Origin: Candidatus Woesebacteria bacterium GW2011_GWC1_42_9
GTDB taxonomy: Bacteria > Patescibacteriota > Microgenomatia > UBA8517
DNA length: 64,000 nucleotides
Reading direction: 5' to 3'
Assembly (NCBI GenBank): GCA_000995185.1
Contig: LCET01000001.1
Coordinates: 29,327-93,326, forward strand
The translations under genes were made by a program, and so were the position numbers. Below the pieces are notes generated by a model. The model was given only the letters and a program-made list of their open reading frames with translations. It had not been told where the DNA came from and did not search any database. Shown piece by piece: positions 1-64,000 of the stretch (the first letter of the stretch is position 1; the number at the start of each line of letters is the position of its first letter).

Positions 1-1
1 T

Positions 2-817
2 TTGCTGACTTTTGGCATCCCATATCAGGTGAACACTCTTGTCGCAGTGGTAAAAGATGATGGAATCATAATAGTGCTTGGAAGATTGCTTGGACTTGAA
101 TCAATGGGGATACTAATCTGGGCACAGAAATGGGCACAAATGCCATTGCGGTTGTTTATGGATCATGTTACTAAAGTTACTTTTCCTGCGTTTTCGAGAA
201 TGCAGAACGAAAAAGAGCATCTATCCAGGAGTGTGACCAGGTCTATTTTTTTCATTTGTTTTTTGGTGTTTCCCGCTATAGCGGGGCTTTTAGTTACAGC
301 ACCAATATTAATACAGATCGTCCCGAGATATGAAAAATGGGCTCCAGCCCTGCTTCCTTTAAGCCTGATTTCTATAAATGTAGTGTTTGCGGCAGTTACA
401 ACCCAACTTACGAATCTACTAAATGCTACGGGAAGGATACGAACAACTTTTAAGTTAATGCTTATGTGGGCGAGCCTTACTTGGTTGATTGTGCCATATG
501 CCGCTATGAAATACGGAGTAGCGGGAGCAGCAGGCGGGTACGCCTTGGTTGGAGCAAGTTCTGTTATTGCAATAATTGTTGTTAAGAAGGTTGTGAACTT
601 TTCTCTTTGGGAAGGAGCAGGTAAGCCAGGATTATCAGCACTTGTGATGGGGATGGTTTTACTGTTTGCAAGAAACACATTAGACCCAAGCCTTCTATCA
701 TTTGTTATATTGGTTGTGATAGGAATTATTGCCTATGGATTTGTTATTTTTGCTCTCGCAAGGGGTGCACTGATTAATGATGTCAAAAAATTTACGAGCA
801 GTCTTTTTTCAAAATAG
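2..817 (+). CDS. Wzx-like polysaccharide flippase, C-terminal part (5' end lies upstream of the window)
   Basis: The ORF runs off the window start. It consists of repeated hydrophobic helices with short loops, typical of the C-terminal half of MOP/Wzx-type polysaccharide biosynthesis proteins. It sits next to glycosyltransferase genes. Confidence 0.55.
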   Translation: MLTFGIPYQVNTLVAVVKDDGIIIVLGRLLGLESMGILIWAQKWAQMPLRLFMDHVTKVTFPAFSRMQNEKEHLSRSVTRSIFFICFLVFPAIAGLLVTAPILIQIVPRYEKWAPALLPLSLISINVVFAAVTTQLTNLLNATGRIRTTFKLMLMWASLTWLIVPYAAMKYGVAGAAGGYALVGASSVIAIIVVKKVVNFSLWEGAGKPGLSALVMGMVLLFARNTLDPSLLSFVILVVIGIIAYGFVIFALARGALINDVKKFTSSLFSK

Positions 818-2435
818 GGCTGCCCTCATATTAATTGCGATTGGTTCTCTGAACTTAAGCCTGACAATGATAAAAAGTGGGCTAGTATATGATGACTTTG
901 GCATGGGATTTTGGGGGGCCAATGGACACGATGGTGTTTGGCATTTGGCTTTGATTAATCATCTTTCTCAAGGATCTCTGAGGCTACCAATTTATTACAA
1001 TGAAAACATTGTTAATTACCATATTGGTTTTGATTTACTTCTCGCTTTAATTTATAAAATTAGCACTATTCCCTCTCCAGTTTTATATTTTCAGATATTT
1101 CCCCCAGTTATAGCCGTGGCTTTAGGAATATCTTCTTATGTATTTGTATATTTATGGCAGAAGTCCAAAAGTGCGGCTTTATGGTCGACTTTCTTTATTT
1201 ATTTCGGCGGTAGTTGGGGTTGGATTATCACTTTAGTTAGGAGACAGGGCTTCGGTGGAGAGTCTATGTTTTGGTCGCAGCAATCTATCTCAACGCTTAT
1301 TAATCCCCCTTTTGCTTTGTCACTAGTGATGATATTCCTCGGATTAATTTTTTTTCTTAAAAGACGTTGGATGTTATCAATTATCGTGTTTGGCGTACTC
1401 ATACAAATAAAATCTTATGCTGGGGTGCTTTGTCTAGGCGGGCTATTGTTATCAGCAATATTTCACTATGTCAAAACTAAAGATAGTCAACTATTGATTA
1501 TGTTTATTGGGTCCTTAGTTGTTTCTATTTTAATTTCCTTCCCTCTCTACAATTATTCGGGAGGAGTATTTATTTACAAGCCCTTGTGGTTTTTGGAAAC
1601 AATGATGGGGTTATCGGATCGTTTTGGCTGGGCTCGGTTTGGAGAGGCAATGGTGAACTATAAATATGGAGGAGTTTGGATTAAAGCATTTATTGCCTAT
1701 TTGTTAGCGTTTTGTTTATTTATTGTGGGAAATTTAGGCACAAGATTAATCTTTTTGTTCAAAAAATGGGGCACAATCTCTTATATCGATGTCTTTATAT
1801 TAACAGTAATCATGGGGGGAATATTTACTCCCATGTTGTTTGTGCAAAAAGGAACTGCGTGGAATACGATCCAGTTTTTTTATTACTCATTGGTATTCGT
1901 CGGAGTTTACGCAGGTATTTCTGTAAATTCGATAAAGAATAAATACATGGGTATATTTATCATTTTGCTTACCCTGCCAACGACATTTGGTTCCTTGAAG
2001 CATTATCTCCCAGGCACTCCTCCCGCAGCATTGCCAAAAGAAGAGATTCAGGCACTAAAATTTTTGGCTAAAGAACCGGAAGGAGTTGTATTAACGTTTC
2101 CCTACGATCGGCTAAGTGTTAAACCAGAATCGCCTATCCCCCTTTATCGGTATGAGTCAACAGGCTATGTTGCCGCATTTAGCGGGAAGCAATTGTTTTT
2201 AGAAGATGAGATGAATCTAGATATTATTGGTTTTGATTGGCGCGCAAGGCGAGAAGCTGTGGAAGAGTTTTACTCAAGTCTTGATGAAGAATTTGTTAGA
2301 AACTTTTTGAAAGATAATGATATTGATTATGTTTATTGGGTAGATGGACAGCGGGCAACGCTTGGAGAAACTCAACTTGGCCTCGAGAGAATTTTTGAGA
2401 ACGCGAGAGTAGATATCTATAAGGTGATAAAATAG
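777..2435 (+). CDS. polytopic membrane protein of unknown function with a C-terminal soluble domain (possible glycan polymerase or GT-C-like)
   Basis: A 552 aa ORF with about 10 or more hydrophobic segments over the N-terminal 400 aa and a hydrophilic C-terminal domain of about 150 aa. I recognise no catalytic motif. Context is a glycan cluster. Confidence 0.45.
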   Translation: MMSKNLRAVFFQNRAALILIAIGSLNLSLTMIKSGLVYDDFGMGFWGANGHDGVWHLALINHLSQGSLRLPIYYNENIVNYHIGFDLLLALIYKISTIPSPVLYFQIFPPVIAVALGISSYVFVYLWQKSKSAALWSTFFIYFGGSWGWIITLVRRQGFGGESMFWSQQSISTLINPPFALSLVMIFLGLIFFLKRRWMLSIIVFGVLIQIKSYAGVLCLGGLLLSAIFHYVKTKDSQLLIMFIGSLVVSILISFPLYNYSGGVFIYKPLWFLETMMGLSDRFGWARFGEAMVNYKYGGVWIKAFIAYLLAFCLFIVGNLGTRLIFLFKKWGTISYIDVFILTVIMGGIFTPMLFVQKGTAWNTIQFFYYSLVFVGVYAGISVNSIKNKYMGIFIILLTLPTTFGSLKHYLPGTPPAALPKEEIQALKFLAKEPEGVVLTFPYDRLSVKPESPIPLYRYESTGYVAAFSGKQLFLEDEMNLDIIGFDWRARREAVEEFYSSLDEEFVRNFLKDNDIDYVYWVDGQRATLGETQLGLERIFENARVDIYKVIK

Positions 2436-2439
2436 AGGG

Positions 2440-3339
2440 ATGAATGGGATTTCAGTGGTAATCAACACGTTGAATGAAGAGGAAAACCTTCCTTTGGCAT
2501 TGGGGTCGATAAAAGAGATTGCAGATGAAATTATTGTGGTTGATATGCAATCTGAGGATAAAACGAGAATTGTTGCAAAAAAAGCCGGTGCGAAAGTATT
2601 TGGTTTCAAGCGCATGGGTTATGTAGAACCAGCAAGGAACTTCGCGATTTCAAAGGCAACCAAGAAGTGGGTTTTGATATTAGATGCTGACGAGGAAATT
2701 CCTTCGTCTCTCTCGCGTAAACTTGTTAATCTCACAAGAGAGACTGAGTATAGTTATTTTAGTATTCCTAGGAAAAATATTATTTTTGGAAAATGGATCA
2801 AGCGGTCGAATTGGTGGCCTGATTATAATATCCGCTTCTTTAAAAAGGGCGCGGTCGATTGGGGAGACGAGATACATTCAGTTCCGGTAACTGTGGGTAA
2901 GGGCATAGATCTTGAAGCCAGGGAACAAAACGCGATCGTTCATCATAATTATCAAACGGTTGAACAATATGTCGAAAGAATGAATCGTTACACATCTATC
3001 CAAGCAAAAGAAAAATATAAGGAAGGAGACAGGTTTAGCTGGAAGGATTTGATTATAAGACCTGTCAACGAATTTAATAGTCGTTATTTCGCAGGGTATG
3101 GATATGAAGATGGAGTTCATGGTCTGGCCCTATCTGGCTTGCAAGCGTTTTCTGAGCTTGTTTTGTATATAAAATTATGGCAGTTTAGTAAATTTGACAG
3201 ACAGAAAGTAAGTACAAAGGAGATAGAGATTGAGATGAGGGCTTCGCATAAAGAGATTGCTTTTTGGGCCCAGGACATGTTGGTAAAAACTGGAGGAGGA
3301 TTAATCTCCAGATTAAAACGAAAATTTAAAGTCATCTAA
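2440..3339 (+). CDS. family 2 glycosyltransferase (WaaE/KdtX-like)
   Basis: N-terminal 'VVINTLNEEENL...IIVVDMQSEDKT' and 'ILDADEEIP' (DxD-type motif), typical of GT-A-fold GT2 enzymes. Confidence 0.8.
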   Translation: MNGISVVINTLNEEENLPLALGSIKEIADEIIVVDMQSEDKTRIVAKKAGAKVFGFKRMGYVEPARNFAISKATKKWVLILDADEEIPSSLSRKLVNLTRETEYSYFSIPRKNIIFGKWIKRSNWWPDYNIRFFKKGAVDWGDEIHSVPVTVGKGIDLEAREQNAIVHHNYQTVEQYVERMNRYTSIQAKEKYKEGDRFSWKDLIIRPVNEFNSRYFAGYGYEDGVHGLALSGLQAFSELVLYIKLWQFSKFDRQKVSTKEIEIEMRASHKEIAFWAQDMLVKTGGGLISRLKRKFKVI

Positions 3340-4256
3340 TGACAAAAGTCTTCATAATAGTATTAAATTGGAAAGGAAAGAAAGATACATTGGATTGTTT
3401 GAAATCGATCAGTAAATTAAACACAAGGGAAATAGAATTAACTACTATAGTTGTTGATAATGCTTCAGCTGACGGCTCCGTTGAGGAAATCAGTAGATTT
3501 GAAGTGGGTAAGGGTAAAATGATCGTGATAGAGAACGACGCAAATCTAGGTTTTTCGGGGGGAAATAATGTTGGAATAAAATATTCCTTAGAGAATGATG
3601 CGGACTATGTCTTAGTAGTGAATAATGACATTGTTCTTGATCATTTATCTCTAATTCAATTAATCAAAGTATTTGAAAATAGTGATAAAATAGGCGCCGT
3701 CTCTCCGATAATTTTTTTCTTTAAGGGCTACGAATATCACAAGAGACGGTACATGAAGAGTGAGTTGGGGAAAGTGGTTTGGTCTGCTGGCGGGAAAATA
3801 GACTGGAAAAATGTTTATGCCCAAAATTTTGGTGTTGACGAGGTGGATCATGGGCAGTTTATTGAGGAGGAGACTGAGTTTGCAACTGGTGCTTGTGTGT
3901 TATACAAAGCAAATATCTTGAAAAAGATAGGGATGTTTGATGAAAAATACTTTTTATATTTTGAAGATACAGATTTATCTATGAGGATCAAAAAAGGTGG
4001 TTATAAAATATTATTTACACCAAATGCTAAAGTTTGGCACAAAGTAGCTCAAAGCTCAGGAATAGGGAGCAATTTAAATGATTATTATACCACTCGCAAT
4101 AGGATGATATTTGGGATGAAATATGCGTCTATGCGTACAAAAATTGCTCTAATTAGAGAAAGTATTTCGTTGTTTTTACATGGTAGAAATTGGCAGAGGG
4201 TTGGAGTAAGGGATTATTATTTAAGACGGTTTTATCAAGGATCATGGCAAAGTTGA
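3339..4256 (+). CDS. family 2 glycosyltransferase (WbbL/rhamnosyltransferase-like)
   Basis: 'IIVLNWKGKKDTLDCLKS...VVDNASADGS' N-terminus plus an 'FEDTDL' motif, a classic GT2 signature. The start overlaps the upstream stop (TAATG). Confidence 0.8.
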   Translation: MTKVFIIVLNWKGKKDTLDCLKSISKLNTREIELTTIVVDNASADGSVEEISRFEVGKGKMIVIENDANLGFSGGNNVGIKYSLENDADYVLVVNNDIVLDHLSLIQLIKVFENSDKIGAVSPIIFFFKGYEYHKRRYMKSELGKVVWSAGGKIDWKNVYAQNFGVDEVDHGQFIEEETEFATGACVLYKANILKKIGMFDEKYFLYFEDTDLSMRIKKGGYKILFTPNAKVWHKVAQSSGIGSNLNDYYTTRNRMIFGMKYASMRTKIALIRESISLFLHGRNWQRVGVRDYYLRRFYQGSWQS

Positions 4257-5017
4257 GCGCAATTGTTATCACAAAGAATGAAGAGTTGATGATCGAAGAT
4301 TGTTTGAAATCGCTCGCGTGGGCTGACGAGATAGTCTTAGTGGATGATCATTCAGAGGATAAGACAGTAAAGATTGCCAAAAAATTTGGAGCAAGGGTGG
4401 TTTTACCCCTTAAAAATAATTCTATGGATTACTCTTTGCCGAGGAATCTTGGATTAGCAAAAGCAAATAATGACTGGGTATTGTACGTGGATGCTGATGA
4501 GCGAGTTACTAGTGATCTCTCGAAAGAAATCCAGAAGGTAATTTCAGATCCGGGATATAATTACTATGCGGTCCCACGTAAAAATATAGTACTTGGGAGG
4601 GAACTGAAACATGGAGGGATGTACCCCGATTATGTAAAAAGATTATTCAAAAAAAAACACCTTAAAGGGTGGAAGGGAAAACTCCATGAAGAACCAAATA
4701 TTATTGGAGAAATAGGGCATCTTGGGTCTGCCTTGGTTCATATAAAGCACGAAACCTTGTCTGAGATGGTTGAAAAAACTAATAAATGGAGTGTAATCGA
4801 GGCAAGATTAATGTATGACGCGAAACATCCCCAAATGAATATCCCTAGATTTGTGACTGCGATGGCAAGAGAATTTTGGAAAAGAATGGTAAGGCACGTA
4901 GCGTTTTTGGACGGCACAATAGGAATTATTTATGCGATGTATCAGGTTTTTAGTCGATTTGTGAGTTATTCAAAATTGTGGGAAATGCAAGTTAAGAATG
5001 AGAGCGGCAATTTATAA
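4244..5017 (+). CDS. family 2 glycosyltransferase
   Basis: 'LSAIVITKNEELMIEDCLKSL..DEIVLVDDHSEDKT' and 'YVDADERV'. The ATG at 4244 (MAKLSAIV) gives a typical GT2 N-terminus. The longer ORF starting at 4190 overlaps the upstream gene more heavily. Confidence 0.75.
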   Translation: MAKLSAIVITKNEELMIEDCLKSLAWADEIVLVDDHSEDKTVKIAKKFGARVVLPLKNNSMDYSLPRNLGLAKANNDWVLYVDADERVTSDLSKEIQKVISDPGYNYYAVPRKNIVLGRELKHGGMYPDYVKRLFKKKHLKGWKGKLHEEPNIIGEIGHLGSALVHIKHETLSEMVEKTNKWSVIEARLMYDAKHPQMNIPRFVTAMAREFWKRMVRHVAFLDGTIGIIYAMYQVFSRFVSYSKLWEMQVKNESGNL

Positions 5018-6020
5018 TCCATATTTAGACACTCTCGGAGGTGGGGAGCTATATACAATGAGCGTTGCCCGCTTATTGTTAGAGAGAGGGTATGTAGTCG
5101 ATGTTCAGTGGCGCGATGTAGATATTAAGAAGAGGATCGAAGATAGATTTAACTTGAAGCTTAAGGAAATCAAGATAGTTAACAATATAAATCGAGGAGA
5201 TGGTTATGATCTTTGTTTTTGGCTTTCGGACGGAAGTATCCCCATTCTCCGATCAAGAAATAACATTCTCCATTTTCAATTTCCATTTAAAAATGTTGGA
5301 GGACGCACGTTAATTAATAAAATGAAGCTTGCCAGGATAAGGCATATTGTATGCAATTCTAATTTTACTAAAAGTCATATCGATAAAGAGTACAGTGTAA
5401 ATAGTACCGTAATATATCCTCCTGTAAATACATCTAAATTTAAGCCGAGTAAAAAAGAAAATGTAATTTTTTATTTGGGCAGATTTTCTAATCTAGCGCA
5501 GCAGAAAAGACAAGATATTTTGGTTGAAGTATTTAAGAAATTTTCTAGGAAAAATCCCGGATGGAGACTAGTTCTTGCAGGCGGTGCAGAAGTGGGTGCA
5601 AAAGAGTTTCTGGAGAAGCTTAAAAAAAGATCTGTAGGATTTAACATTGAGATTCTCGAAAGTCCGGATTTCCGTGAAGTTAAAAGACTTTATGGGGTTT
5701 CAAAATTTTTTTGGAGTGCCGCTGGATATGGTGTAGATCTTGAATCTCATCCGGAGAAAGTTGAACATTTTGGAATCTCAGTTGTTGAAGCGATGGCATC
5801 TGGTTGTGTCCCGGTAGTATTTAGCGCGGGTGGATATAAGGAGATCATTGAGGATAGTATTAATGGATATCTCTGGTCTAAAAAAAAGGAGCTGTTGACT
5901 AAAACACAAAATTTTTTATATGATCCGAAACTCTGGCGAAAAATGAGTATTGCTGGGAGAAAAGACAGTGGAAAATATAGTTATGAAGAGTTTGCTAAAA
6001 ACTTCAAGAGTCTTCTTTAG
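4998..6020 (+). CDS. family 4 glycosyltransferase (GT-B fold, Glycos_transf_1)
   Basis: C-terminal 'FGISVVEAMASGCVPVV' (EX7E-like region) and a 'FYLGRFS...K' linker, typical of GT4. Confidence 0.8.
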   Translation: MRAAIYNPYLDTLGGGELYTMSVARLLLERGYVVDVQWRDVDIKKRIEDRFNLKLKEIKIVNNINRGDGYDLCFWLSDGSIPILRSRNNILHFQFPFKNVGGRTLINKMKLARIRHIVCNSNFTKSHIDKEYSVNSTVIYPPVNTSKFKPSKKENVIFYLGRFSNLAQQKRQDILVEVFKKFSRKNPGWRLVLAGGAEVGAKEFLEKLKKRSVGFNIEILESPDFREVKRLYGVSKFFWSAAGYGVDLESHPEKVEHFGISVVEAMASGCVPVVFSAGGYKEIIEDSINGYLWSKKKELLTKTQNFLYDPKLWRKMSIAGRKDSGKYSYEEFAKNFKSLL

Positions 6021-8412
6021 TTTAGCTATTAAGAATTGGCCAGTATTGCTAATAATTGCTGTTGTTTCTGTGTTTTTTTGGAAAGTGTTTATCTTGGGAT
6101 TTATTCCTTTACCGGGTGACTTTGTGGTTGGAGTATATTATCCATGGCTTGATTACCATTGGGGTTACTCGGTGGGCGTCCCGGTTAAAAATCCGATAAC
6201 AACAGATGTGATATCGCTTATCTATCCGGAGCAAATGCTTGCAATCGACATGATGAAGTCTGGTCAATTGCCCCTTTGGAATCCGTACATTTTGGCAGGA
6301 ACCCCACTCTTTGCGAATTTACAGGCTGCACCTTTTTCTCCAACAAATTTTGTCTATTTATTGGGCGATAAATTAACTGCTTGGAGTATTCAAATTATAC
6401 TTCAGCATTTCTTGACAGGATTTTTTATGTTTCTCTTACTAAGAAGATGGAAGGTGTCCGAGTTCGCATCGGTCCTGGGGAGTGTGGTTTTTGCCTTTTC
6501 CGGCTTTAATATGATTTTTTCCCAATGGAACGGGCACACTCTTTCTTCAGCATTTATTCCATTATCAATTTTATTAACGGATAAATTATTTAAAGAGGAG
6601 AGTTTCTCCAGTTTGGTAGGGCTATCGATTGTTTTGGTGCTACAACTCTTCTCAGGATATCCTCAAACAAGTTTGTATACAGTGGCCGCGATAGGTGTTT
6701 ACTGGCTGGTTCTCTCTTTTTTTAGTAGAAAAAATCTGATCAGGAAGAGTTTTTTGTTGATAGCTTCAGGAATGTTTGCTCTTGGCCTGGCTGCTATTCA
6801 ATTATTGCCTGCTGTGGAGCTATGGAAATTATCCCAGAGAGGATTTGAGCCGCATCCTTTTGAGTGGGCATTTCTCCCTTGGGAAAAAGTAATAACGATA
6901 GTGGCACCGGACTTCTTTGGTAATCACGCGACTGCAAATTATTGGGGGCCTCAGGATTACACGAGTAATACCGCCTATATTGGAGTAATCAGTCTGACAT
7001 TTTCACTTCTGGCGTTAAATTTGATAAGAAAGAATAGGAATATATTGTATTTGTTCCTAATATCATTCTTTTCATTGATAATGTCGTTCCCTACTCCGTT
7101 GTCAGTTTTTTTATGGAATGAAAATATCTTAGGGATGAGAGCCGCGTCAGCTCATAGAATAACAGTAATTTTTACTTTTTCGGCCTCTGCTTTGGCTGCT
7201 TATGGAGCTGAATATTTCATCAAAACAAAAAATCTTAAAATTAAACTTACTTTAATTGTAATTTGGATGTTGATCGGCGGATTTTTTCTGTTTTCTTTGT
7301 ACTTATATATGGGAACTTTTGGGAGCGAGCAATTTTACTTGAGAGGAATTCCAAAATATAAGGTTGCAATTCGGAATCTGATACTGCCCCAGATGCTTCT
7401 TTTGTTCACTACTTTTTCTTTATTGATCTCGCAAAGATTTAGATTTCTGCGCAGAGCAGTTTTGGTGGTTCTATTTGTATTAATGGTCTTTGAGTTTTAT
7501 AGATTTGGCTGGAAATTTACTCCGTTTACCCCTCGCCGTTTAGCCTACCCAAACACCCCTGTTTTGGAATACTTGATGTCCCAGGAAGGACCTTCTAGGA
7601 TAACTGGTAATAGTGTCATCCCTGTTAATATAAGGACACCTTATAAGCTTCAGTCCCTGGAAGGTTATGAGACAATTCATCCCTTAAGGATTTCACAATT
7701 TTTGGCTGCTCTCAACAGTAATAAAAGTGGCGCCCAACCGCTTGGAAGATTTGGAATGGTAGATAATGACACCTCTCGTCTCCTTGAATTAACAAATACC
7801 AAATATCACCTTGCACTGAAGCGTGATTTGAAGGGTAACCCAGATGTAAATGGGCAGATTGGGTCGAAATTTACTCCTGATCGTTTTAAAGTTGTTTTTG
7901 AAGATAGATCGACCTCAGTTTTAGAAAATGTTAGGGCACTTCCAAGGGGATTCATGGTTTATGAGTGGGAGATTATCGATGATGGACAAAAAATCATAAA
8001 CGCTTTATTGGATTTAGATTATCCTTTTGAATCAAAAATCATCCTGGAATCGCCAATTAAAATGGAGCAGTTTATTGGAGATGCACCGAGAAACGAGGTT
8101 AAGTTTATTTATTATAGAGAACAAGAAAGTCTCATTGCGATAAACACAAAAGAGGAGGGATTATTATTTGTTTCTGATGCATATTTCCCTGGGTGGAAAG
8201 CATATCTTGATAATAAAGAAGTTGATGTTTATCGTGCTGATTTTGCGTTTCGAGCAGTGAGAGTGCCTTCGGGAAATCACTTTGTTCGCTTTGTTTATCG
8301 ACCGAATTCTTTTTTGATTGGGGCAGGCATTTCTGCGGCTACATTAATAGGTTTGCTTCTGAGCCCTGTGGCGGCGAGGCTACTGAGAAGATATACTAAA
8401 GCGGAGATATGA
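5983..8412 (+). CDS. YfhO-family GT-C membrane glycosyltransferase
   Basis: About 810 aa. The polytopic N-terminal 500 aa contain 'YYPWLDYHWGY...PLWNPYILAGTPLFANLQA' and are followed by a soluble domain and a terminal TM helix. This architecture and size match bacterial YfhO proteins. The start is ambiguous (ATG at 5950 or 5983). Confidence 0.6.
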   Translation: MKSLLKTSRVFFSLAIKNWPVLLIIAVVSVFFWKVFILGFIPLPGDFVVGVYYPWLDYHWGYSVGVPVKNPITTDVISLIYPEQMLAIDMMKSGQLPLWNPYILAGTPLFANLQAAPFSPTNFVYLLGDKLTAWSIQIILQHFLTGFFMFLLLRRWKVSEFASVLGSVVFAFSGFNMIFSQWNGHTLSSAFIPLSILLTDKLFKEESFSSLVGLSIVLVLQLFSGYPQTSLYTVAAIGVYWLVLSFFSRKNLIRKSFLLIASGMFALGLAAIQLLPAVELWKLSQRGFEPHPFEWAFLPWEKVITIVAPDFFGNHATANYWGPQDYTSNTAYIGVISLTFSLLALNLIRKNRNILYLFLISFFSLIMSFPTPLSVFLWNENILGMRAASAHRITVIFTFSASALAAYGAEYFIKTKNLKIKLTLIVIWMLIGGFFLFSLYLYMGTFGSEQFYLRGIPKYKVAIRNLILPQMLLLFTTFSLLISQRFRFLRRAVLVVLFVLMVFEFYRFGWKFTPFTPRRLAYPNTPVLEYLMSQEGPSRITGNSVIPVNIRTPYKLQSLEGYETIHPLRISQFLAALNSNKSGAQPLGRFGMVDNDTSRLLELTNTKYHLALKRDLKGNPDVNGQIGSKFTPDRFKVVFEDRSTSVLENVRALPRGFMVYEWEIIDDGQKIINALLDLDYPFESKIILESPIKMEQFIGDAPRNEVKFIYYREQESLIAINTKEEGLLFVSDAYFPGWKAYLDNKEVDVYRADFAFRAVRVPSGNHFVRFVYRPNSFLIGAGISAATLIGLLLSPVAARLLRRYTKAEI

Positions 8413-30093: not shown

Positions 30094-30094
30094 T

Positions 30095-35597: not shown

Positions 35598-35614
35598 TAT
35601 ACTCTGTATTTAGT

Positions 35615-37383: not shown

Positions 37384-37412
37384 TTGATTTTCTAATATCT
37401 GAGAATGATAAT
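37384..37412 (+). promoter_or_regulatory. candidate sigma70-like promoter (TTGATT, 17 nt spacer, TGATAAT) giving a near-leaderless transcript for the downstream ORF
   Basis: TTGATT at 37384-37389 and GATAAT at 37407-37412, preceded by TG, with a 17 nt spacer. The predicted TSS falls 3-4 nt before the ATG at 37423. In AT-rich DNA this could be chance. Confidence 0.25.
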
Positions 37413-56065: not shown

Positions 56066-57141
56066 TTTAGGTTGATTTTACCATGTTGAACTTCCACCTT
56101 GAAACCAGTTTTTGATTCCTTTTTAGCGAGGTCATAATCGTGTTTTGTCATTAAAGTAGCAAGAGCACTAAAAGTTACCTTTGGTTTCCATCCGAGGATT
56201 TCCCGAGCTTTTGAAGAATCACCTATAAGAATATCAACTTCAGATGGTCTAAAATAGACAGGGTCGATTTCGATGACTGTCTTATTTGTGTTTTTATCGA
56301 TACCTTTCTCATCTACACCTTTCCCTTTCCAAATAATATCCATATCAAGATTTTTTCCGACTTCTTGTACAAATTCCCGCACGGTATGTGTTTCACCAGT
56401 CGCGATTACAAAATCATCCGGCTCATGATGTTGGAGGATACTCCAAATCGCGTTTACGTAATCCTTGGCATATCCCCAGTCTCTTTTGGCATCGAGATTT
56501 CCAAGCTTAAGCACTTCTTGGACGCCGTGTTTAACTCGCGAGAGACCGAGCGTGATCTTCCTAGTTACAAATGTGTAGCCCCGCCGCGGGGACTCGTGAT
56601 TAAATAATATTCCATTTGAAGCAAATAATCCGTAACTATTACGGTACACTTTGGTGATATAAAAGGCAAAAGTTTTTGACACACCATATGGAGATTGCGG
56701 GTTAAATGGAGTAGTTTCTCTTTGAGGGGTTTCAAGGACTTTGCCAAACATTTCGGAGGAACTTGCTTGGTAATATTTGGATGGAATTTTGAGATCACGA
56801 ATTGCATCTAGTAGTCTCAGTGCGCCCAGACCATTCACTTCCGCAGTGTATTCGGGAACATCAAAACTTACTTTTACATGGCTTTGAGCGCCGAGGTTAT
56901 ATATTTCATCAGGATCGATTTTAGAAATTATGCGGCTCAGATTAGAACTTTCTGAAAGATCGCCGTATAAAGTGGAAAATTGTGGGTATTGGGGATTGTC
57001 AAAGATGTGATCTATTCGATAGGTATTACTTAAGCTGCTTCGCCTTTGTATGGCATATACTTCGTACCCTTTTTCCAAAAGAAGCTCGGCGAGGTATGAA
57101 CCATCCTGACCTGTGACTCCGGTGACTAAAGCTCTTTTCAT
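56062..57141 (-). CDS. gmd: GDP-mannose 4,6-dehydratase
   Basis: It is near-collinear with E. coli Gmd: '[25 protein letters not shown]', '[14 protein letters not shown]', '[35 protein letters not shown]', '[20 protein letters not shown]', '[13 protein letters not shown]'. Confidence 0.93.
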
Positions 57142-57170: not shown

Positions 57171-58679
57171 CTACTGTAAAAACTTAATTTTTTCTCCTGC
57201 CCGATACTTCTCGGTTAAATTGATGACCTTCCCTCTTGCAGGATCAAAACTACTACCACTTCTTTCGTAATCGTAATCAAATATAAAGACGTTTTCGCTA
57301 TTACTTCTGAATTCTTCTTCCCACCCTGGAAGTGGCAGAGCGAATGCAAACCCAAGAGGTGCGTAAAAGAGTTTAAACATCGGATTTGGCCAGCCGAGAT
57401 ATGACGGGGTAATCATGATGGACTCAGAGGTAAACTGGTCTGAAATTGATTTCGTGTAGGTTATAAATCTTTGCATCATTTCGGACGAGTATTGGATAGA
57501 GTCGATATGTTTGTTGATAATAATTGAATTGGAGATGACATAGATTGTTAGGATAATCAGAGAAGAAAAAAAGTATAGGCGCTGTCTTTTGGAGAACAAC
57601 ACATAGAGAATAATTGACCAGACGATCGAAAGCAAAATAGTTGAAAGGAAAAATTGCCTGCTTTGACCAATGCCTTTGTAGACATCAAGCTTTACATCCA
57701 CATAAACATAAAGAAACATGATCGATAATGCTCCGAGGAGACTTGTCAAATAAAGCTTTGTTAATCGACTCTCACCTTTGCGTATCCAGAAAATTACTCC
57801 AATATAAATTATGAGTAATACCTTTGTAGATAAATCAACGGCTTTAGTAAACGGATAGCTGAGTGAACCGTTCGGCCAATTTTTTGCGATCAATTTGATT
57901 ATGTCCGGCGGGAGGCTGATGATAGGGACTTGATAGGTAGTTTTTTGTATAACCCTGTCTTGAATAAGAACGAATTTTAGAGGATTTGTGGTTGGTTTTT
58001 GACCATCTTGGCTGTTGAAAATGTAGCTGATGGCGACAAACGGAATTGTGAGTGTGACCCCTAATGCGAGGCTTTTTATTTTAGATTTGCTGTCAATGAA
58101 TTGAACCAGCGGTAAAATAACAAACACGGGCAACATGAAAGTAGAAAAATGAGCCAGAAAAACGGCCATCATGAACAAAGCAACAGAAGTTACATAAAAT
58201 ATAAATCTTTTTTTTAGGAAAAACTTTTCTAGATAGTAAAAAGCGATGAGAGTAGGGAGCATGCCAGGGACTCGTTGAAGAAACCATTGATATTGCCCTG
58301 CGGCCATCATGCCAAATGAACCAATATAATTAGCCAGGAAGAAAACCGCGGATGAAAATCCGATAAGTGGGCTTTTAGTTATTTTAGTAATGATTAAAAA
58401 GAGAGTTGCATGCAAACTGCTTATAGTCAGCAAGAGGAAAAGTTGATAAAGGCGGATATTGTCACCAAATATTGGCGGAAGAATATCAAAGATTATTTTG
58501 GCAAAAATATCAAGTTGTTCCAAGGGTTTAAAATTATCCAATTTCGAAAAGAAGTCTTGGGATCGATCGAAATAATAATACCCTTCACCTAAGAATACCT
58601 GGTCAAGAATCTTGTGCCAGACAATAAAATCCAAGGCGAAAATAACTGTGATGATTAAAAAGAGTCGGCTTTTATTCAT
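57171..58679 (-). CDS. polytopic membrane protein of unknown function (possible glycan polymerase or GT-C-like)
   Basis: 502 aa with about 12 or more hydrophobic segments and a C-terminal soluble tail of about 100 aa. No recognisable motif. Embedded in the glycan cluster. Confidence 0.4.
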
Positions 58680-58715: not shown

Positions 58716-60899
58716 ATGCCACAACTTATAGCTTTTGTCCGTAAAAATCAATGGTTGCTTTTGATACTCTTTTTAGCATTTCTATTTCGATTTGTTGGCG
58801 TCAGGCCAGGCTATAACTCTTTTCATCCCGATGAGCCGATCTTAACAGGAAAGGCCATACAGATGATTAAAAGAGGAAACTTAGATCCTGGACGATACGA
58901 CTATCCAACATTGTCAATATATATCGATTTTCTATTTTTCAAATTTTTTTTCACTCCCATTTATTGGATGAAATATTACTTGACTAATATCGTTGGTATT
59001 ATTGACGGAGTAATCCATATCCCCCCAAGCGCATTGGAGGCCAAGCGGCTTTTTCAGGTTGAAATATTAGGAGTAAGAGACATTAGCGCTTTATTTTGGG
59101 GGAGGTATGTGTCGGCATTATTTAGTTTAGGATGTGTTTTTTTAATTTATCTATTGGGATGTAAATTATTTAATAAATCTATCGGCCTAGTTGCAGCCTT
59201 TTTGTTAATTTTTAATTTTAAGCATGTTGCTAATTCACATATCAACTTACCAGACACTTATAACTCGTTCTTTTTACTTTTATCAATTATTGCGAGCGTT
59301 AATCTTTGGCAGAGACCTTCCAAAAAAAATTATATATTGGGTGGTATTGCTGCAGGACTATTTTTTTCAACAAAGTATCAATTTTTTGCCCTATTCCCTT
59401 TTGGACTAGCACATTTATATCGCTCAAGAAACCCCTTTAGTTATATTTTTATATCCTCGGGATTGGTGTTTCTTTTGGTGTTTTTAATTTTAAATGCTTA
59501 TTTTTTTATAAACATAGAACTTGCGTTGTATTGGATGGCAAGTGTTTCTGGACGATATGCAGTTGGAACAAATAATCTAAATTTATTTCCTCTTTCTTAT
59601 CTTTATAAAGTTGACTACGGGCAATTCGAGTCGATCATGATCTTGATTGGAAGCATTTTAATTCTGAGAAAATCTTTTCGAAAAGGTTCGTTTCTTTTTG
59701 TAACAGTTATTCCTTTCGCTTTTATGTTTCTTTATTATACAGGCGGGGGATTGTTTGTTAGAAATTTCATTACTATCACGCCAATCTTATTATTATTGGC
59801 GGCTTATGGTATTTGGAATATATATAAGTTTTTTAACAAGAGGATAATACCAGCTTTTTCTACATTAGTTTTGTTTTTTTTGTTGTTGGGGTCAGTTTAT
59901 GTCCCTGCTAAAAATAGTTTGATTAATTCTTATTACTATACTAAGCCGTGGAATATTAATGTTTTAAAAGATTGGCAAAGACAAATTTTACCCGACAGTG
60001 TTGCGATCGCTGCCCACCCCTTTGATCCCGTTGAAGGACCGTCTAATGTCATCCGATCTGAATTTGAAATAAGTGGCAATTACTCTTTGAATGAGCACAG
60101 GGAAGCTGGGGCTGACTGGGCTTTAGTTAACCTAATGTGGGCAGCTAACCCTTTTTATTTTTGGATGGGCTATGGTTTTAAGGATTTAAATATTTATTGG
60201 GATAAGCCAATTGACCAATTGCGCAACATGTACCACGGCTTGGCTACAGAGGAGCTATTTCGTTATCAAGTTTTTTCGGTCACTAAGCCTTGGCAGGCGC
60301 CCGAGTTTAATTATGTGATGATCAAGTTTCCGGAGTGGCCTGAGGTGCAGATGAAAGCACTTAAATTATTTGATTTTAGCGACGGTACACAGGGGTGGAG
60401 TTTTGGTTATGACGACAAGATAGGCCACAGTAGCCCCGGATCTATCGCGGTAGAGTTATCTGGAGATAAGTTTCCTTATAAGCGAATAACTTCTGAACCA
60501 ATGGAAGTGAAACCTGGCCGCCTTTATAAAGTGGAAGGTTTCCTAAAGACAGGAGCGATACTCCCTTCAAATCAGAGAGATGGTTTGTTGCGAATTGATT
60601 TTTACAGTGAAGTTATTTATTCTGCTGATAGAGTTGGCTTGATTAGTTCAGTTTCGTCACGTGCGTGGGGACCAGATGATTGGTTTAAGAAGCAAGTAAT
60701 TGAGCGTGCTCCTGGCGGTGCAAAATACATGGTTGTAAGTTTGCAGGTTGGTTCATCTGGAAGGACTAAAATATGGGCTGACGATATCGTAGTAGAAGAG
60801 TCAGATTCTGAAATTGTTGAGATAACATCTCAACCTCCGTATCTTGACAAACCTATCGATTTAAATTTACTTTACTTTAATTCAATTGGTAATTTATGA
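58716..60899 (+). CDS. GT-C PMT_2-like membrane glycosyltransferase fused to a C-terminal carbohydrate-binding (CBM_4_9-like) domain
   Basis: 'FHPDEPILTGKAIQMIKRGNLDPGRYDYP' DE motif and a TM-rich core of about 420 aa. The C-terminal 'FDFSDGTQGWSFGYDDKIGHSSPGSIAVELSGD...GRLYKVEGFLKTG' has a CBM beta-sandwich character. Confidence 0.55.
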   Translation: MPQLIAFVRKNQWLLLILFLAFLFRFVGVRPGYNSFHPDEPILTGKAIQMIKRGNLDPGRYDYPTLSIYIDFLFFKFFFTPIYWMKYYLTNIVGIIDGVIHIPPSALEAKRLFQVEILGVRDISALFWGRYVSALFSLGCVFLIYLLGCKLFNKSIGLVAAFLLIFNFKHVANSHINLPDTYNSFFLLLSIIASVNLWQRPSKKNYILGGIAAGLFFSTKYQFFALFPFGLAHLYRSRNPFSYIFISSGLVFLLVFLILNAYFFINIELALYWMASVSGRYAVGTNNLNLFPLSYLYKVDYGQFESIMILIGSILILRKSFRKGSFLFVTVIPFAFMFLYYTGGGLFVRNFITITPILLLLAAYGIWNIYKFFNKRIIPAFSTLVLFFLLLGSVYVPAKNSLINSYYYTKPWNINVLKDWQRQILPDSVAIAAHPFDPVEGPSNVIRSEFEISGNYSLNEHREAGADWALVNLMWAANPFYFWMGYGFKDLNIYWDKPIDQLRNMYHGLATEELFRYQVFSVTKPWQAPEFNYVMIKFPEWPEVQMKALKLFDFSDGTQGWSFGYDDKIGHSSPGSIAVELSGDKFPYKRITSEPMEVKPGRLYKVEGFLKTGAILPSNQRDGLLRIDFYSEVIYSADRVGLISSVSSRAWGPDDWFKKQVIERAPGGAKYMVVSLQVGSSGRTKIWADDIVVEESDSEIVEITSQPPYLDKPIDLNLLYFNSIGNL

Positions 60900-63538
60900 G
60901 ACGGTATAAAGTATTTTTATTAATTACTGTCCTTATTTCTTATGGCCAGATATTGGGGATGGGTGTATGGAAAGATGATAACGCTATTTTTTTTAAATTT
61001 ACCCATGTCAACGAACCGACAGGGTTTTTCGGGACTGGTATTTTGGGTCAAGGACCATACCGGTTTTCAATCACTCCATATTGGTTTGTCTATCAATTGG
61101 TCGGATATGAACACATTTGGGCATATTATCTACTAATTTTATTTTTTTATTTTTTGATTGCCTTCTTGGTTTATAAGGTCTTTTCTAGAATAATATCACC
61201 ATTGGGTGGTCAGGTTGCAGGATTACTTTTCGCAGCTGGATATGTCGCTTCGGAAGGATACTTTTGGGTTGCAAACGCGATGTTAGCAAATGCGAGTATG
61301 GTGATTGACCTCTTGATCCTACTATTTTATCACCTCTATTTTCAAAAAAAGAGATTGACCTATTACTTATTTGCATTAGGGCTTTATTGGTTGGTTTCTT
61401 TCCTTATCCCCTTGAGGAACTATTACTTTGTTTCTATTGTGATAATTTTTGAGTTAATACACATAAATTTGCGAAATCTACCCAGAGCAATCTTAACATC
61501 ACTAATAAGATTGGTTCCTTTTGGGATAGTTTTTCAACGTTATTTTTTGAGCCAGATGGATGGTAGAGCAGTTTCGGTACAGAATTTTTTTGTCTCATTG
61601 AGGGGTGGTGATTTATATCTGACACAAGGATTCTTGTCGTCAATTGCCAGCTTGATTATCCCAGACTGGTTCGTGTTTTGGTTGTTCCGATATTTTCCAC
61701 CGAGGATCGCTCTTTTTTGTGTCATTTCACTATTTTTTATTGTTTTGTTTTTTCTTTTTAGGAGCCAGAGAAGAAAGTTTTTAAAGATTGTTTGTTTTAA
61801 TTTGTTTGGTATTGTTTGGTTGATTGTTTCTAGAAATCTATATGATACGCCCGTCCTTGCACTTGTCCCTGTCAGAATATTTATTATCCGGTTGGGGGGT
61901 CTAGTTTTAATCTTAGCTTTAAGTCTTCTTTTTACTCTCCCAAAAAAAATGAAGGGCCAGTTCTTCTTTTTCTTTTCTTGGTTTGTGATCAGTATTGCCG
62001 GGTATACTTTTTACGAACCAAAGGCATACCTGGGGACGACCCATCGTTATTTTGCGCATTCTCTGGTTCCTTTGGCCGGGGTTTTAGCTGTTGTTTTTGT
62101 TGCCGTAAAACCAAAAAATCTCTGGACTAAACTGGTTAGATCAATGATTATTTTTTGGGGACTTACGAATTTAGTTAGCTCGGTGATTTATCAAAATAAA
62201 ATATTGAAAGAACGAAGTATTCCAGTTAGGAATTTCTATGTGCAGTTAAAAGATCACCTTGAAAGGGTTAAACCCGGGGATGTTTTTTACTTTGATGTAG
62301 CGAAAGAGTCAGCATCACAATTTGGAGATGCCTTCAAGGTTTCTTCAATGCCGAATGAAACTGCGATAGCGTGGCGTTATGGTGTTGACAGGAATGACTT
62401 TCGTCTTTTTGACGATTTTGATAGTTTTATTATTTGGGTTTGGGATAATAAGCTCACAAGAGAGCAAATTCACACTTATTATTATTCCAAAGAAGGGTTG
62501 GTTGATACTTCAGTACAGACTTGGCACTATTTAAAAAACAAAGAGGGATACAAGGAATTGAACGTAACTGCGCAGAGAAGCAACGGAGGATTGGAAATTG
62601 CCTTTGACGAACCGATTAATTCTGTTTCTCCTCTTGAATTTGAACTTGGTATAAGTGCAAAGCCATTAGCAGTTTCAGAGCTTTCTTTTCCATATCACAA
62701 TGATGTGGCTTTATTTTCAAATAAGTTGGCCGGAGATTCTTCTTTACGCCAGAGCGCCTTTGACTATCAAAAACAAAAAGAGTCGTTGATGGCAAGGGCG
62801 AGAATTAGCACCAATAGTACATGGTTTGGAGATGTGGCTGACCACTTGATAGATGGTAATTTAGGGAGTGTTTGGCGCTCTCATAGAGTATTATGGTCAA
62901 AGGAAAAGTCAACGAATTTAACCGTAGATCTAACCACGGAATTGTCAGTTGATAGATTTGTTTGGTATAACGCTTACTCTAATAATACGCCTACGAGATA
63001 CCGGCTCGAGCTATCTTCTGATAATCAAGATTGGCTAACAGTTTATGAGTCGGAAGGTCAATATCGAATTGAGCCCAACGAGATACAGGTCATAAAGTTT
63101 AATCCCAGAAGAGCGAGATATGTTCGGATGACTATTACTAAAACCTTGAGTGATGATTCACCAGGGGTAGCTGAAGTTTGGGTAGTGCCGTCCAGTTTCG
63201 ATAATTTAGATATTGTAGAGGCAGAGTCGTTTCTGTCGCAGCCATTTGCATTCGTACCCAATGGGCAAGATTATTTGGACACCCTAAGGAATGTCGGCTA
63301 TATAGGTAGGGCGACGATCTATTGGGAAGATAATCAACGAAAAGAATGGACGACGAAGTTTGGATCAGAGGTCCGGCCCATGTATAACTCTAGCGATCAT
63401 TTATACACAGTTTATGTGCCCTCAAGAGGAACAAAAATTGAAAAAATAAGAATAGCTGATACAACAATACCAGGGGAGATTGAGATAACTAGTGTGAGAT
63501 ATAGACATCTTACTCTGGAGGAGATTTTGATAAGATGA
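60896..63538 (+). CDS. large polytopic membrane protein (GT-C-like) with a C-terminal F5/8 type C (discoidin) domain
   Basis: A TM-rich N-terminal 430 aa is followed by a soluble region. The C-terminal 'FGDVADHLIDGNLGSVWRSH...LTVDLTTELSVDRFVWYN...YRLELSSDNQDWLTVY...ARYVRMTI' fits the discoidin consensus closely. Confidence 0.6.
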   Translation: MRRYKVFLLITVLISYGQILGMGVWKDDNAIFFKFTHVNEPTGFFGTGILGQGPYRFSITPYWFVYQLVGYEHIWAYYLLILFFYFLIAFLVYKVFSRIISPLGGQVAGLLFAAGYVASEGYFWVANAMLANASMVIDLLILLFYHLYFQKKRLTYYLFALGLYWLVSFLIPLRNYYFVSIVIIFELIHINLRNLPRAILTSLIRLVPFGIVFQRYFLSQMDGRAVSVQNFFVSLRGGDLYLTQGFLSSIASLIIPDWFVFWLFRYFPPRIALFCVISLFFIVLFFLFRSQRRKFLKIVCFNLFGIVWLIVSRNLYDTPVLALVPVRIFIIRLGGLVLILALSLLFTLPKKMKGQFFFFFSWFVISIAGYTFYEPKAYLGTTHRYFAHSLVPLAGVLAVVFVAVKPKNLWTKLVRSMIIFWGLTNLVSSVIYQNKILKERSIPVRNFYVQLKDHLERVKPGDVFYFDVAKESASQFGDAFKVSSMPNETAIAWRYGVDRNDFRLFDDFDSFIIWVWDNKLTREQIHTYYYSKEGLVDTSVQTWHYLKNKEGYKELNVTAQRSNGGLEIAFDEPINSVSPLEFELGISAKPLAVSELSFPYHNDVALFSNKLAGDSSLRQSAFDYQKQKESLMARARISTNSTWFGDVADHLIDGNLGSVWRSHRVLWSKEKSTNLTVDLTTELSVDRFVWYNAYSNNTPTRYRLELSSDNQDWLTVYESEGQYRIEPNEIQVIKFNPRRARYVRMTITKTLSDDSPGVAEVWVVPSSFDNLDIVEAESFLSQPFAFVPNGQDYLDTLRNVGYIGRATIYWEDNQRKEWTTKFGSEVRPMYNSSDHLYTVYVPSRGTKIEKIRIADTTIPGEIEITSVRYRHLTLEEILIR

Positions 63539-64000
63539 AAAAACCGAAAATCATAGTCGTTATGCCTGCATACAATGCTGAAAAAACGCTGAAAAAAACT
63601 TATCGGGATATCCCCAAAGGCCTAGTGAATGAGGTAATTTTGGTAGATGATGGTTCAAAGGATAAGACGGTTGCCCTGGCCAAGAAACTTGGTATTACCG
63701 TTTTTGAGCATCCTAATAACTTAGGATATGGAGGTAATCAGAAGACTTGTTATTGGGAGGCACTGCAAAAGAATCCCGATGTGGTAGTGATGCTTCACCC
63801 AGATTATCAGTATGATTCCTCTTTGATAGGCGAGCTGGTTAGGCCGATTCTCCAAGGTAGGTTTGACTATATGTTTGGATCCAGAGTTAGGACGAGGAAG
63901 GAAGCTTTGGAAGGAGGAATGCCAGCGATCAAGTATTTAGTTAATAGAATTTATTCGCTCATTGCCAACTTAATTATGGGAGTAAATTTTACAGAGCACA
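63535..64000 (+). CDS. family 2 glycosyltransferase (DPM1-like), 3' end beyond window
   Basis: The ATG at 63535 overlaps the upstream TGA. 'KIIVVMPAYNAEKTLKKTYRDIP...VILVDDGSKDKT', 'HPDYQYD'. The ORF runs off the window end. Confidence 0.7.
   Translation, partial: MKKPKIIVVMPAYNAEKTLKKTYRDIPKGLVNEVILVDDGSKDKTVALAKKLGITVFEHPNNLGYGGNQKTCYWEALQKNPDVVVMLHPDYQYDSSLIGELVRPILQGRFDYMFGSRVRTRKEALEGGMPAIKYLVNRIYSLIANLIMGVNFTEH

Follow-up and report, generated by a model that had tools for sequence, protein, structure and literature searches.

Among the closest described counterparts of the gene cluster reported here are the bacterial three-component systems (GtrA/GtrB/Gtr*, ArnC/ArnE-F/ArnT, CsbB/GtcA/YfhO, PgfS/PgfM and GT136), in which a polyprenol-phosphate-sugar synthase of the GT2 family is combined with a GT-C glycosyltransferase that acts outside the membrane (PMC11127046). 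The cluster fills a stretch of 64,000 nt (the window) of contig LCET01000001.1 from Candidatus Woesebacteria bacterium GW2011_GWC1_42_9; its genes are named below by their start coordinates in the window, with (-) for the reverse strand. It resembles the three-component systems in having a full-length synthase of the ArnC/PgfS type (45002(-)), a YfhO protein and an ArnT-like PMT_2 protein, while the fusion of a GT-C enzyme with a carbohydrate-binding module (CBM), known from GT136 ORF12, EmbA/B/C and AftD, is found here in 60896. It differs from them mainly in scale: each of those loci has one, rarely two, GT-C genes serving side-chain sugars, whereas at least 19 GT-C proteins of at least seven subfamilies are encoded here together with four to six synthases. 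A further difference is that no small flippase of the GtrA, SMR or MATE type was recognised. We consider it probable that the window forms the middle of a locus of at least 83 kb for a cell-surface glycan, specifying a two-stage pathway in which lipid-linked assembly would be followed by extension through GT-C enzymes.

In its logic the locus also resembles the N-glycan pathway of the eukaryotic endoplasmic reticulum (ER; ALG1/2/11, Rft1, DPM1/ALG5, ALG3/9/12/6/8/10 and STT3). Both comprise cytoplasmic GT-A and GT-B enzymes, a flippase of the MOP superfamily, GT2s that are or resemble dolichol-phosphate (Dol-P) sugar synthases, varied GT-C enzymes, and a GT-C protein that is or resembles an oligosaccharyltransferase (OST). 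The present version, however, is bacterial and gene-clustered, its GT-C enzymes are mostly of the PMT_2/ArnT type (GT-C_A) and not of the ALG type, and its OST-like protein is without the WWDYG, DXD and DK/MI motifs. Homologs of one of its families (family C) match the Pfam models ALG3, ALG6_ALG8 and PIG-U, and there is likeness to the mannosyltransferases of glycosylphosphatidylinositol (GPI) synthesis, PIG-M and PIG-V, family C being related to the solved GPI mannosyltransferase 1 and homologs of 32003 matching PIG-V. The resemblance to the ALG enzymes is one of architecture only, not of orthology.

Actinobacteria carry many GT-C enzymes, a fact that the initial annotation of the window ignored in taking zero to three per bacterial genome as the norm. 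The assembly of arabinogalactan and lipoarabinomannan (LAM) in mycobacteria and corynebacteria (EmbA/B/C, AftA-D, PimE, MptA-C, Ppm1 and the decaprenylphosphoryl-arabinose (DPA) pathway) likewise employs many GT-C enzymes with polyprenol-phosphate sugars to make a wall glycan outside the membrane, some of these enzymes bearing CBMs. The mycobacterial wall-assembly genes are spread over a 4.4-Mb genome, however, whereas those of the window are contiguous and the genome of a relative measures 819 kb; genes of an arabinose pathway (DprE, UbiA-type) were not seen here. In the archaeon Haloferax, a DPM1-like synthase, a flippase and a GT-C mannosyltransferase using Dol-P-Man (AglD/AglR/AglS) act outside the cell together with the OST AglB. 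GT2s of the window match the AglJ and haloarchaeal Dol-P-hexose transferase models, but in archaeal N-glycosylation only one extracellular GT-C step is known, and AglB has the canonical motifs that are absent from the OST-like protein of the window (777-2435).

For the Candidate Phyla Radiation (CPR, or Patescibacteria) itself, the nearest reports are of "29 glycosyl transferase genes" in one genome of the Microgenomates (PMC7143001) and of some eight genes annotated as Dol-P-Man transferases in Peregrinibacteria (PMC4736985). The literature that we searched on GT-C, PMT_2, ArnT and OST proteins in the CPR holds no description of this type of locus. The component families are all of known kinds, and GT-C/CBM fusions, three-component systems and mycobacterial wall assembly with multiple GT-C enzymes are established; what is undescribed in the literature searched is an array this dense, a gene order conserved lineage-wide in the CPR, and several GT-C families that are orphans in Pfam, the OST-like one included. 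It is the densest GT-C array known to us.

GT-C families and their conserved order

In our analysis with Pfam and NCBIfam all open reading frames (ORFs) of at least 150 aa in the window were scanned, and assignments are given for 51 ORFs. The GT-C proteins number 19: twelve exceed the Pfam cut-offs (eleven PMT_2/PMT and one YfhO), and seven are recognised by remote homology or predicted fold, namely 11450 and 17250 (Gpi18/PIG-M-like), 32003 (PIG-V-like), 8409 (PMT-like with a DQ motif), 60896, 57171(-) and 777. The initial count of at least 16 was therefore too low. In searches with hidden Markov models (HMMs), or by remote homology or predicted fold, the polytopic proteins resolve to GT-C families, the two Wzx flippases being the only transporters.

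All-against-all BLASTP was used to group the polytopic proteins. The largest group, family A, corresponds to the eight PMT_2/ArnT-like paralogs of the initial annotation, all of them above the Pfam cut-offs for PMT_2 or PMT: 13511-15205, 15701-17275 (PMT), 18516-20069(-), 21323-22975 (60 bits), 23596-25212, 25196-26878, 26844-28493 and 28459-30093. These proteins of 517-564 aa share 26-41% identity. The pair D32-E33 in loop 1, R135 and E139 are invariant in all eight, and because of this each of the full-length paralogs looks catalytically competent. From their basic N-termini (positive-inside rule), loop 1 would lie outside the membrane.

Family B consists of two PMT_2 proteins that are 36% identical, 38025-40004 (659 aa, 57.6 bits, with a putatively extracytoplasmic C-terminal domain of about 250 aa) and 41178-43208 (676 aa). 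Outside families A and B, a PMT_2/PMT protein of 727 aa with a C-terminal domain of about 300 aa (58716-60899) and the YfhO-family protein of 820 aa (5950-8412; 95.6 bits) also pass the Pfam cut-off. The two members of family C, 11450-12715 and 17250-18542, are 33% identical; family D is formed by the small membrane proteins 15202 and 22938, and the rest are singletons.

The remote assignments draw on homologs. Family C has 589 of them, all named ones from Patescibacteria and some called "Gpi18-like mannosyltransferase" by JGI, and their Pfam matches are solely to GT-C families (PIG-U, ALG3, GT87, ALG6_ALG8, Mannosyl_trans4 and PMT_2); 17250 itself matches PIG-U with 28.5 bits, and a profile of 27 family C sequences finds the solved GPI mannosyltransferase 1 in the PDB (E 1.1e-5). 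An EpsG/Wzy-type polymerase was considered for 11450 and rejected, the EpsG match being weak and below cut-off and the family resolving to GT-C. The family of 32003-33151 (382 aa, invariant D58) counts 9960 representatives, and PIG-V (Mannosyl_trans2) is matched by 18 of 38 sampled members (best E 1.5e-12). Aligned with ten orthologs, 8409-9926 corresponds to family A over 405 columns (hhalign 97.4%, E 1e-11) with D34-Q35 at the D-E position, and its ortholog in locus L008 has a weak PMT_2 match of its own. The 502-aa protein 57171-58679(-), without a Pfam match, is a probable GT-C enzyme; it aligns in register (95.1%, E 3.3e-8) with the family of the 880-aa protein 60896 and is akin to that protein's membrane domain. 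These five proteins are thus homologous at profile level to known GT-C families. Acidic loop-1 motifs are kept outside family A as well: the 8409 family has D34, family C has H30 and D32, and the families of 32003, 60896 and 777 have D58, D27-D28 and H51-D52, respectively. Other comparisons gave little. An hhalign run of 32003 against family C reached 9%, single-sequence runs of 777, 57171 and 60896 against family A were uninformative, and PDB sequence searches with single proteins or profiles returned nothing useful for 17250, 32003 and the profiles A5 and A8 (777 family), with a marginal match only for A1.

For 60896 and 777 the evidence is structural, the membrane domains of their predicted structures being superposable on solved GT-C enzymes. 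The AlphaFold2 model of 60896-63538 has a pLDDT of 91.6, and its Foldseek matches include AftD, a mycobacterial GT-C enzyme with CBMs (E 8e-8). The protein ends in an F5/8 type C domain that exceeds the Pfam cut-off and has the CBM32/discoidin fold, and nearly all of its 47 homologs (E <= 0.001) are full-length with the same C-terminal domain. It is the only one of the four proteins initially described as lectin-fused for which this holds: the C-terminus of 41178, possibly discoidin-like, matches F5_F8_type_C below threshold (E 0.0019) and the CBM32 region of the 60896 family at 46.6% in hhalign, the extension of 38025 has no Pfam support, and that of 58716 has no Pfam match, hhalign of 58716 with the 60896 family giving 2%. 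Family membership and the co-located synthase-like GT2 genes suggest that all GT-C enzymes of the locus would use sugars linked to lipid phosphate.

Beyond the 19, three truncated proteins correspond to the middle or C-terminal part of family A and are without its N-terminal D-E loop: 15202-15714 (a paralog of 22938, BLASTP E 1e-16, with orthologs in other loci), 20048-21295(-) (positions 161-468 of the family A HMM, E 1e-4) and 22938-23594 (positions 251-400, E 2e-5). In six other species loci an ortholog of 22938 occupies the corresponding position, so that the protein gives the impression of an accessory subunit that has been retained, not of a pseudogene.

The conservation of this arrangement is the most telling of the new results. 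When GTDB species-representative genomes were scanned with the family C profile, 34 loci were obtained. Those of CPR type that exceed about 8 kb (L010-L033, L035 and L036) have three to seven family A ORFs on the flanks of the family C gene, within 10 kb of it, and YfhO and 8409-like genes are usually present too; four distant non-CPR matches (L040-L043) have none of these neighbours. The titled loci belong to Woesebacteria, Blackburnbacteria, Microgenomates or "Patescibacteria group". Nine records (L010, L011, L014, L017, L019, L021, L023, L026 and L031) are titled "uncultured Gammaproteobacteria bacterium" despite a cluster of Microgenomates type, and from the gene content these titles look like mislabels. 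A GTDB genome scan with the alignment of the eight family A paralogs failed, no stretch of it being conserved enough, and one of the species representatives with 21323 alone gave no match, so that the very genome of the window is not one of these representatives.

Each family A ORF of these loci was assigned to its best paralog in the window, and clear orthologs were called by thresholds. One-to-one orthologs share 42-66% identity, against some 30% with the next paralog, and their bit scores are about twice as high. The gene order is always 13511 > family C (17250) > 21323 > (23596) > 25196 > 26844 > 28459, and clear orthologs were found in 27 loci for 13511, 25 for 21323, 22 for 25196, 19 for 26844 and 17 for 28459, which with 17250 make up the conserved core. 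An upstream block, GT2-GT2-GT4-(YfhO)-methyltransferase-GT2-(8409 or family C)-GT2, is likewise collinear across loci. The paralogs therefore arose before these lineages separated, and every one of them was retained, which speaks for distinct and non-redundant functions. Such conservation argues against a recent amplification, pseudogenisation or a hypervariable locus.

Candidate donor synthases, flippases and the OST-like protein

Four GT2 proteins of the window are best read as putative polyprenol-phosphate-sugar synthases, in agreement with the initial estimate of at least four DPM1/GtrB-like enzymes; they probably belong with Dol-P-Man synthase, ArnC and GtrB, which match them best, rather than with soluble GT2 clades. 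The clearest is 45002-45940(-), of the ArnC/GtrB/PgfS type, which matches the NCBIfam models ArnC (183 bits, below the equivalog cut-off of 529 bits; model residues 7-296 of 316, protein residues 5-297) and PgfS (137 bits). Two hydrophobic segments at residues 241-297, following the GT2 domain, give it the architecture of GtrB and ArnC. For the other three, DPM1-like and candidates by best match, the top PDB match is the Dol-P-Man synthase of Pyrococcus furiosus (5mlz, E 3e-10 to 5e-13): 34374-35159 (E 3.5e-12), 50334-51062(-) (E 4.9e-13, residues 14-221) and the C-terminal domain of 52510-53787 (residues 191-406, E 2.8e-10, its sole PDB match). The GtrB structure 5ekp is also among the best donor-synthase matches. 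Other GT2s are matched by 50334 at E-values similar to that of 5mlz. In NCBIfam the three match AglJ, the haloarchaeal Dol-P-hexose transferase (DPhHxTase) and PpgS, all far below the cut-offs (90.6 bits to AglJ for 52510; partial matches to PgfS, PpgS and ArnC for 34374 and to AglJ, DPhHxTase and PpgS for 50334). From these best matches they may act on lipid phosphate. In BLASTP the four form one group, which also takes in two further GT2 genes from immediately beyond the window; the 245-aa DPM1-like GT2 whose 5' part closes the window (63535-64000, ending at window-equivalent 64272; Pfam GT2) belongs to this set. The N-terminal extension of 52510 (190 aa) has neither a Pfam match nor a predicted membrane segment.

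Both Wzx flippases named initially are present. The first (2-817) is the 3' part of a gene for 488 aa that starts upstream of the window and is seen in full on overlapping contigs (Polysacc_synt_3, E 3.5e-19); the second (33155-34420) matches Polysacc_synt_3 and Polysacc_synt.

Directly after the first Wzx gene and before the block of cytoplasmic glycosyltransferases lies 777-2435, encoding a Pfam-orphan protein of 552 aa from a family of at least 1437 members. Its predicted fold combines an N-terminal GT-C membrane domain with a C-terminal globular "CC" unit like that of AglB/STT3. The hallmarks of STT3, AglB and PglB are two DXD motifs, WWDYG and DK/MI (PMC3703281). None of them occurs in 777-2435: at the place comparable to WWDYG its family has L456-Y-x-Y459-E-S-T-A-Y464, and loop 1 has H51-D52 and not DXD. 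The invariant residues of the family are H51-D52-G-x-W-H, N80-Y-H-x-G-x-D86, G161-E-S-x-F-W, T360-x-W-N-T-I-Q-F, the L456 to Y464 stretch, and E476-D477. Pfam STT3 is matched by none of 36 family members, the family profile found no match among PDB sequences, and for want of the hallmark motifs the protein was rejected as a canonical STT3/PglB or a member of that family. With its predicted OST architecture it is nonetheless the protein of the locus that most likely performs a final transfer, should there be one.

Readings of the pathway

Under the reading that we favour, nucleotide sugars, among them methylated sugars and sugars of the 4-amino-6-deoxyhexose type made from GDP-mannose, would be joined by cytoplasmic GT2 and GT4 enzymes into at least one polyprenol-linked oligosaccharide, and the Wzx flippases would bring the intermediates across to the outer side of the membrane. 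GT2s of the DPM1/GtrB/ArnC type (four in the window, six with the flanks) would load single sugars onto polyprenol phosphate, and the approximately 19 GT-C transferases would use these lipid-phosphate sugars outside the membrane to extend and decorate the glycan, each being expected to have a donor, linkage or acceptor specificity of its own. The finished glycan would be passed to an acceptor in the envelope, either a protein or a glycopolymer, with 777-2435 as the candidate for this last step. The initial annotation had spoken of an ALG-like assembly line. Its list of parts is real (several GT-C subfamilies, synthase-like GT2s, Wzx, and cytoplasmic GT2 and GT4 enzymes), whereas the successive action of these parts on one glycan is something that we infer. 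The pathway is made more credible by the one-to-one orthologs in fixed order and by the position of the OST-like gene directly after the first Wzx gene.

Several observations weigh against this reading. Sequential action on one glycan and parallel modifications would leave the same picture in the sequence, and the literature searched contains neither experiments nor glycan structures for this lineage. Three of the four DPM1-like GT2s are without transmembrane segments and score far below the NCBIfam cut-offs, and the assignment of 57171, a single-sequence hhalign comparison, is the weakest of the five supported by profiles. The window scans revealed no initiating phosphoglycosyl transferase, GtrA-type flippase, Wzy polymerase, canonical STT3, or WaaL or LCP ligase; a Wzx/Wzy-dependent pathway in particular finds its Wzx twice but no match in the window to Wzy, an O-antigen ligase, Bac_transf or Glycos_transf_4. 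Genes for such steps could lie elsewhere in the genome.

Synthase and GT-C genes are paired locally: upstream of the window a DPM1-like GT2 of 249 aa stands beside an ArnT-like PMT_2 protein of 517 aa, and at its end the GT2 of 245 aa follows the GT-C protein of 880 aa.

Such pairs would be expected if the locus were a bundle of independent decoration modules, each a synthase and a GT-C enzyme like those of Gtr, Arn, CsbB-YfhO and Pgf, clustered for the sake of co-regulation. YfhO and a synthase of the ArnC/PgfS type are hallmarks of known decoration systems, and in the three-component systems side-chain sugars are added after polymerisation (PMC11127046). The modules might each place single sugars on S-layer or pilus proteins, teichoic-acid-like polymers or peptidoglycan. 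This is the main rival of the pathway above, and we regard it as possible but rather unlikely: the GT-C genes (at least 19) far exceed the synthases (four to six), five or six core family A genes form an uninterrupted tandem run without synthases whose order is fixed across species, and flippases of the GtrA type were not found.

Less credible still is that family A consists of protein O-glycosyl(mannosyl)transferases, comparable to actinobacterial Pmt or streptococcal PgfM, that diversified according to their secreted protein substrates and not according to glycan acceptors. Family A is indeed matched by both the PMT and the PMT_2 models of Pfam, and the PgfS match of 45002(-) fits the Pgf system, which glycosylates Ser/Thr-rich regions of membrane-associated proteins (PMC12041528). 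The window, however, contains no MIR domain and no gene for a Ser/Thr-rich substrate, genes for Wzx, GT2, GT4 and sugar modification prevail in it as is typical of lipid-linked glycan assembly, and the CBM32 fusion points to a carbohydrate acceptor for at least one enzyme; we find protein O-glycosylation by family A decidedly unlikely. That duplication merely left behind many paralogs without catalytic activity or a role of their own, their high number having little functional meaning, is highly improbable and largely contradicted, for although 15202, 22938 and 20048(-) are truncated and without the catalytic loop, D-E, R135 and E139 are kept in all eight full-length family A paralogs, up to 27 species-level genomes of a genome-reduced lineage retain the orthologs in their order and at 42-66% identity, and even the truncated 22938 type is conserved in six loci.

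Returning to two-stage assembly, one may speculate further that Microgenomates have a complete N-glycosylation-like pathway organised as in the eukaryotic ER, with cytoplasmic lipid-linked assembly, Wzx flipping, a long series of extracytoplasmic GT-C steps supplied by several polyprenol-phosphate-sugar synthases, and en bloc transfer to envelope proteins by the highly divergent and hitherto unrecognised OST-like 777 family. We hold this to be unlikely; if it were true, eukaryotes would not have invented multi-step glycan extension of the "lumenal" type, and the CPR would possess oligosaccharyltransferases of a new class.

CPR bacteria are ultrasmall, have reduced genomes and in many cases appear to be attached to a host. 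To our knowledge, the chemistry of their envelope is essentially undescribed. The locus takes up at least 83 kb, and the retention of its core order in many species implies that the glycan product is central to their cell biology; this product could serve host attachment, S-layer or pilus function, or protection against phages. Being compact and bacterial, the locus would serve as a model of how glycans are assembled in many steps outside the cytoplasm, a process known otherwise from work on the eukaryotic ER and mycobacterial walls. Its unannotated families with defined conserved residues (the OST-like 777, the 880-aa GT-C-CBM32 protein, the DQ-motif 8409 and the truncated family-A-like proteins) are ready for expression and assay.

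Remaining genes, flanks and extent of the locus

The window holds 54 genes, 44 of them on the forward strand, and 99.4% of it is covered by coding sequence; 33 of 43 same-strand junctions overlap or abut, an operon-like packing. Its G+C content is 37.3%, and it contains no tRNA genes. Besides the eleven PMT_2/PMT proteins and the YfhO protein, the Pfam and NCBIfam scans count 12 GT2, four GT4, two Wzx (Polysacc_synt_3) and five stand-alone S-adenosylmethionine (SAM) methyltransferases, and one each of a DegT aminotransferase-methyltransferase fusion, GDP-mannose 4,6-dehydratase (Gmd), WbuC cupin, GalU-like nucleotidyltransferase, B12-radical SAM enzyme, fragment resembling a nucleoside-diphosphate (NDP) sugar dehydrogenase, and DUF5667 protein.

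The other GT2 genes, assigned by Pfam, are 2440-3339 (cytoplasmic type, Glycos_transf_2), 3339-4256 (rhamnosyltransferase-like; TIGR01556, E 2.7e-17, below cut-off), 4190-5017, 10582-11478, 12702-13514, 30083-30952, 43935-44984 (with a C-terminal transmembrane segment) and 46827-47855. The GT4 genes are 4998-6020 (Glycos_transf_1), 30940-32016, 35516-36742 and 39997-41181, and the stand-alone methyltransferases, also found by Pfam, are 9923-10585, 36729-37373, 45959-46855, 51069-51746 and 51747-52484(-). Nucleotide-sugar metabolism is represented by a GalU-like sugar-1-phosphate nucleotidyltransferase (49547-50329(-); Pfam, and NCBIfam galU at E 1e-46, below cut-off) and by the short NDP-sugar dehydrogenase-like protein 43205-43966 (TIGR03026, E 1.8e-10, below cut-off). 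The B12-binding radical SAM enzyme 47852-49459(-) is probably a methyltransferase (Pfam; NCBIfam PhpK family, E 6e-30, below cut-off). The product would seem to contain heavily methylated sugars, as suggested by the five methyltransferases of the window and three more downstream, the DegT-methyltransferase fusion and the B12-radical SAM enzyme.

An Arn-like sub-module extends over 53813-57141, 63535-64000 and the sequence just downstream, and adjoins three GT-C genes. It comprises the DegT-type sugar aminotransferase-methyltransferase fusion (53813-55684; DegT 362 bits, and methyltransferase domains), the WbuC-family cupin of 130 aa (55673-56065(-); TIGR04366, E 7.5e-9, below cut-off), Gmd (56062-57141(-); GDP_Man_Dehyd 467 bits), a DPM1-like GT2, an ArnA-type formyltransferase and a deacetylase-family enzyme. 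This recalls the Arn pathway, in which an amino sugar is N-formylated, transferred to undecaprenyl phosphate by ArnC, deformylated by ArnD and transferred by ArnT. By this analogy the precursor here would derive from GDP-mannose, and the genes suggest that polyprenol phosphate carries an amino-6-deoxyhexose in formylated or deformylated form.

The initial statement that nothing but glycan synthesis is encoded in the window is nearly right, the exceptions of unknown function being a membrane ORF of 140 aa found by ORF scan (35175-35597; no significant Pfam match), the three truncated GT-C-like proteins and the DUF5667 protein (37405-37971). The last is a secreted or anchored helical protein, with an N-terminal hydrophobic segment followed by a helical region, and is the sole clearly non-enzymatic gene of the cluster.

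Proteins identical to those of the window occur on 10-21 contigs in ENA, JGI and Logan, the longest of 707,797 bp, so that the window is not an assembly artefact; they are also found in Candidatus Woesebacteria bacterium GW2011_GWB1_43_14 and GW2011_GWA1_39_11b (NCBI metagenome-assembled genomes). Exact look-ups of 777-2435 and 2440-3339 gave no match, these genes being called from other start codons. On a groundwater contig of 298,377 bp from Rifle, the window corresponds to positions 145189-209188, and its sequence hence stems from a CPR bacterium of the Microgenomates. The 9.2 kb upstream encode a partial PMT_2 protein, two 8409-like GT-C proteins, the DPM1-like GT2 directly followed by the ArnT-like PMT_2 protein (FADEAIY motif; a classic synthase/GT-C pair), a PTPS_related/YfhO-like protein of 569 aa, a protein of 474 aa like the N-terminus of family A, and the start of the first Wzx gene; six more GT-C-like genes thus lie directly upstream. 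The 9.5 kb downstream encode the rest of the DPM1-like GT2 begun in the window, the ArnA-type formyltransferase, a Polysacc_deac_1 enzyme, two more GT2s, WbqC, a radical SAM/SPASM enzyme, a second DegT-type aminotransferase and three methyltransferases. The locus hence spans at least 83 kb, at least 19 kb of it outside the window, and its end is reached on neither side. The only complete related genome that we met, that of a Woesebacteria member (CP011214.1), has 819,458 bp, and of a genome of that size the locus would take up about one tenth. On the forward strand the GC skew is +0.17 overall, +0.21 in forward-strand genes and +0.08 in reverse-strand genes, so that G exceeds C throughout the window; a strong strand-wide disparity of G and C has been reported for some Microgenomates of the order UBA1400 (PMC7143001).

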